A stretch of DNA of 57,949 nucleotides from Candidatus Parcubacteria bacterium (GTDB lineage Bacteria; Patescibacteriota; Minisyncoccia; Phycocordibacterales; UBA918): contig JBEDID010000001.1 in assembly GCA_041173745.1 (NCBI GenBank), forward strand, positions 1 through 57,949. Direction: 5' to 3'. The position numbers and the translations under genes are program-made. Positions 3,496-6,468 of this stretch are shown here, one piece after another. The notes under the pieces were generated by a model. The model made no database searches and was not told the DNA's origin. It saw only the letters and a program-made list of their open reading frames with translations. Positions within the stretch are counted from its first letter, which is position 1; each line of letters opens with the position of its first letter.

Positions 3496-3600
3496 GAACG
3501 GGCGACATCGAGACAGTAACATATTTTTTTATGTTGCAGTATTGACCATCAATCATTTAACTACTCGAATCTAAAAAAACTCAATCAATACAATCACTAA

Positions 3601-3649
3601 TGAGACGAGCGTTTTGAGCCTTAATGCAGGACTTAAAACGCTCGTCTCA
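3601..3649 (+). promoter_or_regulatory. perfect 15-bp hairpin in the leader of the DGR target gene
   Basis: tgagacgagcgtttt(3601-3615) pairs with aaaacgctcgtctca(3635-3649), with a 19-nt loop. It sits about 60 nt upstream of the likely start codon. Confidence 0.5.
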
Positions 3650-3707
3650 TATAAAGATTAGTCGTTGCCGAGCGATTTCGGTAAAACCCCAAGAAAGGAT
3701 GACGTCG

Positions 3708-4517
3708 ATGAAAACATTTAACACGTCTGCACTGGTAACCGCAGACAGTCCGAAAGGACAGAGAGCTACTGAAATGTTCCGCGCTCAATACAACAAGGCT
3801 GGACTCGATGAAGATGGCGCGCAGAGACTCAACGAGCATCATGGCTTCTCTGCCTACCTGCTCGCAGGGATCAGCCGGTTCACGTCGATGCCGGACTACA
3901 CGCTAGCCCGTTCGATCCTCGGCGCGGATTTCATCTCCGCCGACGAGATCACCACGGCCCGGGGCCTCGCTTACACCGAGGACCAGCTCATCGAGCTCGG
4001 GAAGAAGCTCCCGGATCAGGCGACCCTCGAAGCCATCCGCGACAATGGCATGATACTCGTGGCCGGTCCGCCGACCGCGATGACTATGCTCGATGTCCGG
4101 GCCGTCCATACCGACTTCTTCTACTCGAAGGGGCCGGAGCAGGACGACAGTGGATGGTACGACAAAGCGAACGAGAAGTTCGCCCGCACCGACAAGGTCG
4201 AAGCGCTGACATGGATCGCGTTCCGCAAGGAGCCGGTCGAGGGCTCGCTCAACAAGACCTGGTCGGATCAGCAGGCGCTCGTCGCCGAGCCGATGGTGGT
4301 CCCGAACGCCGCCGAGGCAACCTGGGCGCTGACGACCTACAAGGCCGTCCGCGACATCTATCTGCTCGAATCGCTCTACGTCCGCACGTCCAGTCTCGAC
4401 TCGGGCGGTCTCCGTGTCGGCGTCGGCCGCTTCGTTGCCGGGGGTCTGTACGTCTACCGCTGGCACGATGGCGGCCGCGTCGGCCATCTGGGTGTGTCGG
4501 CTGGCAGGAAGTTCTGA
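3708..4517 (+). CDS. DGR target (variable) protein with C-terminal VR
   Basis: ORF 3624..4517. ATG 3708 has AGGA 10 nt upstream, and ATG 3699 is also possible. The last 39 codons are the VR that matches the TR. The gene is GC-rich compared with its neighbours. No signal peptide is visible. Confidence 0.8.
   Translation: MKTFNTSALVTADSPKGQRATEMFRAQYNKAGLDEDGAQRLNEHHGFSAYLLAGISRFTSMPDYTLARSILGADFISADEITTARGLAYTEDQLIELGKKLPDQATLEAIRDNGMILVAGPPTAMTMLDVRAVHTDFFYSKGPEQDDSGWYDKANEKFARTDKVEALTWIAFRKEPVEGSLNKTWSDQQALVAEPMVVPNAAEATWALTTYKAVRDIYLLESLYVRTSSLDSGGLRVGVGRFVAGGLYVYRWHDGGRVGHLGVSAGRKF
4394..4510 (+). repeat. DGR variable repeat (VR)
   Basis: Aligns without gaps to 4896-5012 at an offset of 502 nt. 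The 21 differences all correspond to A in the TR copy. Confidence 0.9.
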
Positions 4518-4539
4518 ACCTTGACCACTTGAGTCCTTT

Positions 4540-4562
4540 GAAATAGTCTCCCAGACTATTTC
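4540..4562 (+). other. 10-bp hairpin 22 nt downstream of the target-gene stop codon (29 nt after the VR end)
   Basis: gaaatagtct-ccc-agactatttc. Its position is analogous to the VR-flanking hairpins that assist DGR retrohoming. Confidence 0.5.
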
Positions 4563-4577
4563 AACTCTTGAAACCTC

Positions 4578-4620
4578 GAGCTTCCGCGCGATTTTTTCGC
4601 TCGGAAGCTCTTTCTTTTTT
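4578..4620 (+). terminator. intrinsic terminator of the target gene
   Basis: gagcttccg(4578-4586) pairs with cggaagctc(4602-4610), with a nested gcga/tcgc stem, followed by tttctttttt. Confidence 0.65.
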
Positions 4621-4895
4621 CATACAAACAAAATATACTTTCCCTATCTTGCTACTGTAGTGTGGGTTACGGTTCACACTCGCGGGATATCTCACTTGGA
4701 GAATCGCCAGAGTGCTGTTGGTCTACGGATCACCGCAGAGCGCGAACAAGGATAGAGAGAACTTCTTGCCCGTTTCTAGTGGAGATGATTCTGCAAAGAA
4801 TCTGCTCTCGTATAAAATTCAAGAAGGAAAGGACATAAACTTTTAACTAAGTAGCAAACCTTAATTTCTGGTGCCACGGACGGAAACGAGCAATA

Positions 4896-5012
4896 TCTCG
4901 ACTCGGACGGTAACCGTGTCAACGTCGGCAACTTCGATGCCAAGGGTCTGAACGTCAACAACTGGCACGATGGCAACCGCAACGACAATCTGGGTGTGTC
5001 GGCTGACAGGCA
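4896..5012 (+). repeat. DGR template repeat (TR)
   Basis: Non-coding and adenine-rich (AAC-type triplets in the VR frame). It is the invariant partner of the VR at 4394-4510 and lies on the same strand as the VR and RT. Confidence 0.9.
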
Positions 5013-5031
5013 GTCATACCTCTATCTATAG

Positions 5032-5060
5032 GGAAACTCCCGCATCAAGCGGGAGTTTCC
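5032..5060. terminator. 12-bp GC-rich hairpin between the TR and the 3' end of avd (bidirectional terminator candidate)
   Basis: ggaaactcccgc-atcaa-gcgggagtttcc followed by ttt on the + strand. It lies immediately after the avd stop on the - strand. Confidence 0.6.
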
Positions 5061-5065
5061 TTTAA

Positions 5066-5416
5066 TTAATGGTCTTTCGTAGACTTAATCCAACCACCGA
5101 GCATTCGCCCAATTTCATCGAGGTTTGCTTCAATGAGTATGTACTTTTTGTCGTCAATCGCTTTTATGTCTTTCATAAGACGGACACACATGCGTAGAAA
5201 ATTAAGTTTTATACTTGTCTTTTCCAATGTAGGAAGCTTATCAGCTTTCGATTGCTGACTTGCATAGAGAATACCTTCAAGTACTTCAATGAGGAGGCTT
5301 TCACATTTCTGCCACAGCGTGTACCGATCTTGCTTCGGAACTGATAATCGTAATTGATAAAACTCTTTGTACAGGTCGTATGTCTTCTTGAAAATTGGTA
5401 TGTCTAAATCATTCAT
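5066..5416 (-). CDS. avd: four-helix-bundle protein, Avd-like DGR accessory variability determinant
   Basis: About 116 aa and all-helical. MNDLDIPIFKKTYDLYKEFYQL...VLEGILYASQ...LDEIGRMLGGWIKS resembles 23S rRNA IVS / Avd family proteins. It lies between the TR and the RT. ORF track 5066..5461, with the start taken at ATG 5416. Confidence 0.7.
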   Translation of the reverse strand: MNDLDIPIFKKTYDLYKEFYQLRLSVPKQDRYTLWQKCESLLIEVLEGILYASQQSKADKLPTLEKTSIKLNFLRMCVRLMKDIKAIDDKKYILIEANLDEIGRMLGGWIKSTKDH

Positions 5417-5532
5417 GTATGAAAATTTATAAGGAATTGTTCTAGCTAATAATTTCTCCACAGGCGTTATTTAAGGCATGGGAGATATTTAAATCCGACA
5501 AACGAAGTAAGTCCGACGTTATAGAGTTTGAA

Positions 5533-6468
5533 ATGGATATTGAAAAACATATTTTTGAACTGTATCGGGATTTGAAAAATGGAACATACCAACACGGACC
5601 ATATAAAGGATTCTGGATTCATGACCCGAAAGTACGACGTATACACAAAGCAACCGTGCGTGATCGAGTACTCCATCACGCCATTTTCCGTGCACTGAAT
5701 CCCATTTTTGAGCCGACATTTATTCCAAACTCTTTTTCTTGTCGTATTGGTAAAGGGACTCATAAAGGAGTAGAGAAACTTAGAGAGATGATTCGAACAG
5801 AAAGTGGCAATAATACACGCCCATGCTTTGTATTGAAGTGTGATGTGAGGAAGTTTTTTGACTCCATTGATCACACCGCATTGCTCGAAATTCTTGCTCG
5901 AAAAATCAAAGATAAAAAAGTTATGTGCCTTATGCATGAGGTCGTTGGTAGTTTCGCTGCGACTCGTGCGAATCTTTTTGACCGAAAAGGTGTGCCAATC
6001 GGTAATCTCACATCACAAATCTTTGCCAATATCTACATGAATGAGTTTGACCAGTTTGTTAAACAAGATCTCAAGGTAAAACACTATGTACGCTACACTG
6101 ATGACTTTGTCCTTATTTCTTCAGATAAGTCATATCTCGAAAAATTACTACCGTCGATGCGAGATTTTCTCAGAACAAAACTTTACCTTGAACTTCATCC
6201 AAAGAAAGTCACTCTCACAACACATCATCGTGGTATCGACTTTCTTGGGTACGTGATTTTGCCTGAACACATTAAGATGCGAAGCAAAACCAAGAAAAGA
6301 ATCCCGAGAAAATTACGTGAGAGCGTAGAACTTTACAAGAATGGTGTAATCAGTGAGTTGACGCTCAAGTCCACACTGCAATCGTATGTGGGCGTTATTT
6401 CTCATGCTGATGCTTATGAATTTGGTGTAGAAACAAGAAATAATTTCTGGTTTTGGTTGAATGAATAA
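5533..6468 (+). CDS. DGR-type reverse transcriptase
   Basis: IGNLTSQ (5998-6018) is the DGR-specific [ILV]GxxxSQ motif. YTDD catalytic box at 6094-6105. FDSIDH motif. The conserved N-terminal region continues in frame upstream of ATG 5533, back to the stop at 5443-5445. Confidence 0.9.
   Translation: MDIEKHIFELYRDLKNGTYQHGPYKGFWIHDPKVRRIHKATVRDRVLHHAIFRALNPIFEPTFIPNSFSCRIGKGTHKGVEKLREMIRTESGNNTRPCFVLKCDVRKFFDSIDHTALLEILARKIKDKKVMCLMHEVVGSFAATRANLFDRKGVPIGNLTSQIFANIYMNEFDQFVKQDLKVKHYVRYTDDFVLISSDKSYLEKLLPSMRDFLRTKLYLELHPKKVTLTTHHRGIDFLGYVILPEHIKMRSKTKKRIPRKLRESVELYKNGVISELTLKSTLQSYVGVISHADAYEFGVETRNNFWFWLNE

Follow-up and report, generated by a model that had tools for sequence, protein, structure and literature searches.

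In the diversity-generating retroelement (DGR) of Bordetella phage BPP-1, arranged mtd-avd-TR-brt, adenine-specific mutagenesis runs from an AAC-rich template repeat (TR) to a variable repeat (VR) at the 3′ end of the target gene. The VR has a boundary known as IMH (initiation of mutagenic homing) with a G/C-rich, A-free stretch, an accessory protein, Avd, is encoded alongside, and the reverse transcriptase (RT) carries the motif [LIV]GxxxSQ. According to Wu et al. 2018 (PMC5758913), a hairpin downstream of the BPP-1 VR favours homing, and the architecture TR-(avd)-RT is classed as B3. According to Weinberg et al. 2017 (PMC5737381), the RT-10 motif is the BPP-1 spacer motif, located 3′ of the TR, and RT motifs other than RT-10, RT-16 among them, were suggested to serve DGRs. 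Here we describe an element at positions 3708-6468 of a 57,949-nucleotide stretch of DNA from a Candidatus Parcubacteria bacterium (contig JBEDID010000001.1), the whole of which we call the window. DGRs are reportedly abundant in lineages of the candidate phyla radiation (CPR), as Paul and co-workers are said to have found in 2017. We find a DGR of class B3, TR-(avd)-RT, that is part of a large family in Patescibacteria. We consider it likely that it is a chromosomal Patescibacteria DGR with the order target gene (containing the VR), terminator, structured RNA plus TR, avd on the opposite strand and RT, and that this copy was recently silenced.

With BPP-1 the element shares its adenine-specific TR-to-VR divergence and AAC-rich design, the position of the VR at the target's 3′ end, an IMH-like boundary that includes G/C-rich sequence free of A, a hairpin 3′ of the VR, Avd as accessory protein and an RT with [LIV]GxxxSQ. 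The BPP-1 RT is also the best solved-structure match of the window RT. The core gene order and orientation are those of the B3 DGRs of Wu et al. 2018 (PMC5758913) and, as with the DGRs of CPR bacteria, the hosts of the loci related to the window are Patescibacteria. The window differs from BPP-1 in having its structured RNA 5′ of the TR (4646-4893) and not in a 3′ spacer, only about 55 nt following the TR, in a target without detectable similarity to Mtd, and in a nonsense codon in its RT. The core features are listed here; group B is one of two groups of related loci, A and B, that are compared further on.

3708-4517, plus strand: target (variable protein) gene, 269 aa, from the list of open reading frames (ORFs); at least 325 homologs
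4394-4508, plus strand: VR, encoding the last 38 variable-region codons of the target
4486-4512, plus strand: IMH-like 3′ boundary, made up of the A-free 16-nt stretch CTGGGTGTGTCGGCTG (4488-4503) and the VR/TR difference at 4509
4540-4562, plus strand: stem-loop 30 nt 3′ of the VR, with a 10-bp stem and a CCC loop, predicted from sequence
4895-5010, plus strand: TR, starting 2 nt after helix P3 of the structured RNA; group-B type
5011-5030, plus strand: post-TR segment, IMH*-like or spacer-like, CAGUCAUACCUCUAUCU; conserved in the locus alignment
5066-5416, minus strand: avd, 116 aa, facing the TR and pointing away from the RT gene
5419-6468, plus strand: DGR RT frame, 349 codons, with TAG at codon 9; contains PIGNLTSQ and YTDD
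5443-5445, plus strand: premature stop TAG (W9*), TGG in the closest relatives

A preliminary description of this locus had aligned the two repeats without gaps at a constant offset of 502 and had counted 21 mismatches, every one with A in the TR. A scripted recount reproduced both the alignment (VR 4394-4508 against TR 4896-5010, 115 nt each) and the mismatches, position for position: the TR base is A in 21 of 21, and all 87 non-A positions are identical. With 28 A among the 115 TR positions, the chance that 21 random mismatches would all fall on A is 2.2e-17. The substitutions are A to G in 12 cases, A to T in five and A to C in four, about 75% of the TR adenines being substituted in the VR. 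They affect eight AAC codons, AAG, AAT, three GAC codons and GAT, and create no stops, exactly as first described. Seven TR adenines within the repeat are unchanged (4901, 4952, 4958, 4967, 4970, 4988 and 5008); the eighth in the original count, at 5012, lies outside it. Likewise, the claim that all C, G and T positions are identical holds within 4896-5010, but not out to the ends first given to the repeats (4510 and 5012), where a non-A mismatch is included. The homology between TR and VR in relatives begins one base earlier, at window positions 4393/4895; here the VR has G and the TR has A, a possible 22nd adenine substitution, which changes an AAT-type codon to a family-conserved Ser (AGT).

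The VR lies inside the target ORF, at its 3′ end, and stops 9 nt before the stop codon. The first non-A mismatch falls just beyond the repeat (VR 4509 A, TR 5011 C), and this difference, CAGGAAG in the VR versus CAGGCAG in the TR, is kept throughout the family; it behaves like an IMH/IMH* boundary and not like an error. By analogy with BPP-1 (Wu et al. 2018, PMC5758913), the segment 4486-4512 would act as the IMH. A hairpin of different sequence occupies the same place relative to the VR in most related loci. The window thus has both an IMH/IMH*-type boundary and a stem-loop 3′ of the VR, with predicted functions. A TR-based scan of the window that allowed any base at A positions revealed no second VR. 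It is clear that the resident TR has served to rewrite this VR in the past.

The neighbouring genes point in the same direction. The Avd-like gene noticed earlier passes the NCBIfam model NF033474 (DivGenRetAVD) with 84 bits against a curated cut-off of 80, and is matched by Pfam bAvd (2e-17, 64 bits against 40) and by the PHROG family 'Avd protein of DGR' (8e-20). The RT matches Pfam RVT_1 and contains both the IGNLTSQ and YTDD motifs that had been reported for it, the former being a motif 4 of the [LIV]GxxxSQ form. Its best match in the PDB is 8ub7_A (4.6e-45), a chain of 328 aa named only 'Reverse transcriptase' in the search output, which we take to be the Bordetella phage BPP-1 DGR RT; the best group II RT reaches 2.1e-24. 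All NCBIfam models for group II, retron and DRT (defence-type) RTs stay below their cut-offs. The highest of the NCBIfam RT models is nevertheless a group II intron RT/maturase (160 bits), as would be expected if the repeats were an ordinary duplication, or a chance similarity, beside an unrelated RT belonging to a retron, a group II intron or a defence system. We find this hardly credible: 160 bits falls well short of the 300 required, the BPP-1 RT outscores every group II RT by 20 orders of magnitude, a DGR-type Avd adjoins, the mismatches are confined to TR adenines, and more than 30 related loci repeat the pattern. The element is a DGR, as first proposed, because its TR and VR diverge at adenines only, its VR lies at the 3′ end of an ORF, its Avd scores above the DGR-Avd cut-off and its RT is nearest to that of BPP-1.

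The order TR (4895-5010, plus), avd (5066-5416, minus) and RT (5419-6468, plus), with no other accessory gene, is that of class B3. We scanned one genome per GTDB species for relatives of the target. Eighty loci encode such relatives, all in Patescibacteria-type metagenome-assembled genomes bar a few with doubtful bin labels, in keeping with the CPR/Patescibacteria setting suggested earlier. About 34 of the 80 have avd and RT within 5 kb, and a TR/VR pair with A mismatches is detectable in more than 30. The unit of a TR and an avd facing each other, followed by a forward RT, is constant among related loci, about 34 of which repeat the gene order of the window; in eight loci the whole TR-avd-RT unit is turned round and precedes the target, which places TR and VR on opposite strands. 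The window TR is 93-98% identical to that of a group-B locus, L009.

The RT itself does not fit the preliminary description of the element as complete and active-looking. RT ORFs in related loci are 342-350 aa long and start 2-5 nt from the avd start. The window frame begins in the same manner (ATG 5419, 2 nt from the avd start), but reads MKIYKELF*LIISPQALFKAWEIFKSDKR, with an in-frame TAG, an inactivating RT mutation, at 5443-5445. A sense codon occupies this site in each of the 37 other RT entries, and it is TGG in all group-B relatives, the closest of which, L009, reads MKIYKELFWLIISPQALFKAWEIFKADKR. This lowers the claim of an active DGR, though not the claim of a DGR. We reject reassignment of TAG, since 10 of the window's 41 long ORFs terminate with it and code 11 leaves the housekeeping genes open. 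Downstream of the TAG, canonical starts begin with ATG 5533, which opens an uninterrupted ORF of 311 aa; this lacks 38 conserved N-terminal residues, including the most conserved N-terminal motif of the family (LIISPxxLFxAWxxFKxDKR). Beyond the TAG, 341 codons remain open, with 80% identity to the L009 RT, indicating that the lesion is recent, or else an error or a minority allele. To judge from the reading frame, the change of TGG to TAG has probably switched the RT off, abolishing its function or at the least impairing it severely.

The same data have to be set against the alternative that the DGR is fully active, the TAG being a sequencing or assembly error or a rare allele, or the RT being produced by readthrough, from a nearby non-ATG start or from ATG 5533. 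A single base separates TAG from the ancestral TGG, the 341 codons, catalytic motifs, avd, TR, IMH-like end and hairpins are all intact, and some three quarters of the TR adenines are substituted in the VR. However, the contig consensus is TAG, nothing points to recoding, the interval from the TAG to 5533 is free of canonical start codons, and initiation at 5533 would cost the conserved motif. We therefore regard a fully active DGR as unlikely. With the rest of the RT and all cis elements intact, the most likely reading is that of a copy silenced recently, restorable by a single back-mutation and not active. A metagenome scan for close relatives of the contig found none, the best RT match being 71% identical.

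Several points weigh against the silenced DGR that we propose. The TAG at 5443-5445 could be a consensus error or a minority allele, and re-initiation just 3′ of it is possible, as ATA 5449 and ATT 5452, both table-11 starts, lie 13-16 nt after AAGGA. As to the fold of the target, a Foldseek search of the full-length model against PDB and BFVD gave nothing significant (best E 0.08, none below 0.07), and the C-type-lectin-like matches are weak. Finally, the RNA 4646-5062 that would carry the TR is predicted as a transcript, as are its ends and any role in priming, and the single-sequence fold of 4646-4894 is unremarkable (z = -0.6), which leaves covariation as the argument for its structure.

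That covariation concerns a noncoding domain directly 5′ of the TR, with the following features.

4578-4620, plus strand: target terminator, an intrinsic-like hairpin followed by a T-run, from folding; conserved in the alignment
4634-4639, plus strand: -10-like box TATACT, 6 nt upstream of the structured RNA and just after the target terminator
4646-4893, plus strand: conserved structured RNA domain of about 250 nt, directly 5′ of the TR, from covariation in 27 loci
4646-4652/4682-4688, plus strand: helix P1, capped by 4657-4667/4672-4681
4691-4697/4749-4757, plus strand: helix P2, enclosing three short helices
4766-4777/4882-4893, plus strand: closing helix P3, 12 bp, ending 2 nt before the TR and enclosing hairpins 4781-4791/4798-4808 and 4822-4832/4859-4869
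5032-5060, plus strand: 12-bp hairpin between the TR and the avd 3′ end, its stem formed by differing sequences in the aligned loci

The noncoding segment 4638-4790 retains 70-97% identity even to distant loci and is more conserved than the surrounding genes. RNAalifold, run on the 27 aligned loci, predicted 67 pairs, 48 of them with compensatory changes by its own count and 49 by an independent one. Across the alignment 97.4% of cells are paired, compared to 36-50% when the partners are slid by 1-3 columns, and the covariation score is 0.46 versus 0.24 in shuffles, none of 500 shuffles reaching the observed value. The motif TAnAaT is conserved at the place of 4634-4639 in 25 aligned loci, and TATACT is presumed to be the promoter of the TR RNA; the hairpin at 5032-5060 is its likely end. 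The target terminator at 4578-4620 was not listed by a simple terminator scanner because its stem is interrupted.

Positions 4750-4757 are complementary to 5020-5027 over 8 nt; this long-range clamp is 86% paired but covaries little. We rejected it as an alternative to the local helix 4691-4697/4749-4757, which is better supported (94-99% paired), and for that reason keep the clamp as speculation only.

Rfam, scanned over the whole window at gathering thresholds, returned tRNAs only. The full model of RT-16 (RF03019) aligns to 4722-4899 with 23.9 bits, below the gathering score of 50 that marks membership (E 0.2-2.5), and reaches its threshold in none of the 34 related loci scanned. The RT-16 alignment ends at the TR start and includes a long-range helix, GCCCGUUUCU/GGAAACGAGC, and a single-stranded AUAAAAU; the window domain differs in being about 90 nt longer (P1 and P2). 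It differs from RT-10, which is 3′ of its TR, in lying 5′ of the TR. The window domain would at best be a distant relative of RT-16. We infer that it is the functional counterpart of the spacer 3′ of the BPP-1 TR.

In the mechanism that we propose, a separate plus-strand RNA of about 415 nt (~4646-5062) would comprise the 250-nt folded 5′ domain, the 116-nt TR and a short hairpin tail. The RT, together with Avd, would copy the TR into complementary DNA (cDNA), misincorporating opposite adenines; this product would then take the place of the VR as far as the IMH-like boundary at 4509, recoding 14 codons in the last 38-codon stretch of the 269-aa target. The 5′ domain may serve in this process as a docking or priming module for RT and Avd.

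Simple-sequence-repeat contingency (phase-variable) genes are known in bacteria, and the RT genes of many relatives of the window contain a repeat of this kind. It is present in 15 of the roughly 34 distinct GTDB RT loci, as (GA)6-16 in 14 and as G10 in one, and always sits at one spot, immediately before KGVPIGNLTSQ in the loop that joins motifs 3 and 4.

GTDB loci with an RT tract: L011, L012, L015, L016, L019, L024-L028, L030, L040, L045, L050, L052
Further loci with an RT tract: L091, L092, L125, L129, L164-L171

The tract is in frame, reading (RE)n, in four of the 15 and out of frame in 11, near the 1:2 ratio expected by chance. Three loci with 94% identical flanks (L012, L016 and L026) have 10, 6 and 15 GA units, respectively, tract length varying between loci that are 94-95% identical, and metagenome loci add in-frame examples of (GA)10, (GA)25 and G9. 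The protein collection contains full-length RTs with (RE)1-6, hundreds of 180-226-aa N-terminal RT fragments that end in either out-of-frame tail, and near-identical pairs in different frames (P0241/P0242 and P0249/P0250). In 10 of the 11 out-of-frame loci the RT half 3′ of the tract can still be matched without a break (in L027 two matched pieces overlap), which argues against simple decay. On the other hand, a population found in identical form in six samples has the out-of-frame (GA)8 in all of their assemblies, arguing against fast switching. From its sequence, the tract in relatives looks like a contingency (phase-variation) or recoding switch. It resembles phase-variable genes in that a (GA)6-25 or G9-10 tract shifts the frame, with all three frames occurring among near-identical sequences; unlike them, the window RT has a point nonsense mutation and no tract, and no switching was seen among the six samples of one population. 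Neither (GA)n nor poly-G occurs at the equivalent site of the window RT (~5940-5990). Literature searches for a repeat-controlled or phase-variable DGR RT returned nothing relevant, and term searches of PMC5758913 and of a library of papers found neither the RT repeat nor the 5′ RNA domain.

Taken jointly, these observations lead us to a tentative reading, for which we would claim rather less than even odds, that the 250-nt 5′ RNA domain recruits RT and Avd and sets up priming, and that the clade holds this mutator under heritable on/off control of the RT. In the RNA part, helix P3 and the possible 4750-4757/5020-5027 pairing may clamp both ends of the template together. In the switch part, the (GA)n or poly-G tract between RT motifs 3 and 4 of many relatives and the revertible TGG to TAG change in the window may keep the DGR silent in most cells and live in rare ones.

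The target gene has a history of its own. Sliding identity on a MAFFT alignment of related loci of groups A and B shows a mosaic.

3588-3830: closest to group B (L013, L011, L032, L009), 90-98% identity; 30-48% to group A
3858-4340: closest to group A (L004), 78-97% identity
4578-6300: closest to group B (L009), 85-98% identity
~3860-4390, plus strand: target gene body of group-A lineage, with a G+C content at third codon positions (GC3) of 0.83-0.93; the 5′ end and downstream part are group B

The group-B blocks extend over 3588-3855 and 4578-6468, the TR, avd and RT sharing the lineage of the 5′ end of the target. The junctions lie near codon 50 (~3855) and just 5′ of the VR (~4380), and a protein alignment places the lineage switch near target residue 52. 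The VR matches the group-B-type TR at all non-A sites, which leaves two options: a right junction located at the VR, or a foreign VR later overwritten from the resident TR. A group-A body next to a VR that shares 87 of 87 non-A positions with a group-B TR is in keeping with homing from that TR.

The window is part of a metagenome contig, both junctions fall in family-conserved segments and the G+C content steps sharply at ~3840, so the B-A-B mosaic might be a co-assembly artefact of two related populations and not a recombinant gene. We think this improbable, since no long exact stretch shared by A and B is present at either junction, and the reading frame and the TR-matched VR are seamless. 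Moreover, the group-A part is at most 84% identical in protein sequence to anything in a collection of 5.8 billion proteins, with no donor contig visible, and intermediate N-terminal types occur in the target family, for example P0037.

The base composition of the target stands apart from that of the window. Its GC3 is 0.79 overall and 0.83-0.93 after ~3840, compared to 0.30-0.48 for 19 other long window ORFs, 0.36 for the uninterrupted ORF of the RT and 0.40 for avd, a shorter gene. Across 82 target-family loci, the target gene is mostly 54-66% G+C in host loci of 31-64%; its GC3 exceeds that of the neighbours in 80 of the 82 (mean +0.28), and the composition of RT and avd tracks the host. 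In 35 of another 43 metagenome DGRs, whose targets mostly belong to different families, the GC3 of the target is above that of the RT (mean +0.18). The high G+C content is thus a trait of the whole target family and not peculiar to the window copy or to its mosaic. Candidate causes of the GC3 excess are biased gene conversion at a recombination-prone gene or repeated transfer from a G+C-rich pool. Adenine avoidance was rejected as a cause because third positions are poor in T as well as in A (C 124, G 89, T 33, A 23). A target GC3 of 0.55-0.9 versus 0.2-0.5 for other genes is a compositional signal that could help to find DGR targets.

The homologs of the target, at least 325 in number and about 265 aa long, come where named from Patescibacteria or Taylorbacteria in the protein collection. 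An alternative in-frame ATG at 3699 (MTSMK...) corresponds to the MMSMK start of many homologs, and the target is possibly 272 aa and not 269 aa long because this ATG fits that start; the JGI (Joint Genome Institute) gene call is shorter, at 247 aa. Sequence searches with the target against Pfam, NCBIfam, PHROG and PDB gave no match. An AlphaFold2 (AF2) model built with 105 homologs (predicted local distance difference test score (pLDDT) 86.9, predicted template modelling score (pTM) 0.81) has a helical N-terminal domain and an alpha/beta C-terminal domain containing the VR; a model of the C-terminal domain alone is poor (pLDDT 63). The top matches of the weak Foldseek result are EgtB/SenA, proteins with a formylglycine-generating enzyme (FGE)-like domain, and snake-venom C-type lectins, and would at most hint at a lectin-like fold.

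Two further RNA elements were found around target genes of this family, the first of them in the window.

3600-3652, plus strand: long leader hairpin of the target gene, with a 16-bp stem (3601-3616/3636-3651)

This leader hairpin, followed by a small hairpin at ~3671-3684, lies upstream of target-family genes in 45 of 77 loci, some of them without an RT nearby, and compensatory changes are seen. In many loci a downstream GAGAC(A/C)AG offers its 3′ arm, GCUCGUCUC, another possible partner; such pairing, read from the sequence, would suggest a regulatory switch. The second, LOOT RNA (RF03000, 74-90 bits), occurs within a few kb of the DGR in 10 of the 34 related loci scanned, either ahead of the target or beyond the RT and always on the other strand from the RT; an Rfam scan found none in the window.

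Loci with LOOT RNA: L002 5587-5716, L004 7647-7765, L009 8301-8419, L013 4570-4702, L043 4508-4625, L084, L093, L097, L105, L117

Since the B3 layout has been catalogued and DGRs are common in CPR/Patescibacteria, the element adds little as a DGR. The structured RNA 5′ of the TR, the target mosaic and the family-wide high G+C content of the target go beyond the preliminary description. Worth following up are the TR-linked 5′ RNA domain in the window and, family-wide, the RT repeat switch and the target GC3 excess. For annotation, the locus is a caution that an element with textbook-perfect TR and VR can carry a silenced RT. A covarying RNA attached to the TR makes recognition and priming of non-BPP-1 DGR RNAs directly testable, because it is found where the template cannot be co-transcribed with the RT. 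If the repeats in the RT genes of relatives are a case of true phase variation, a targeted mutator would be under bacterial control as a contingency locus.

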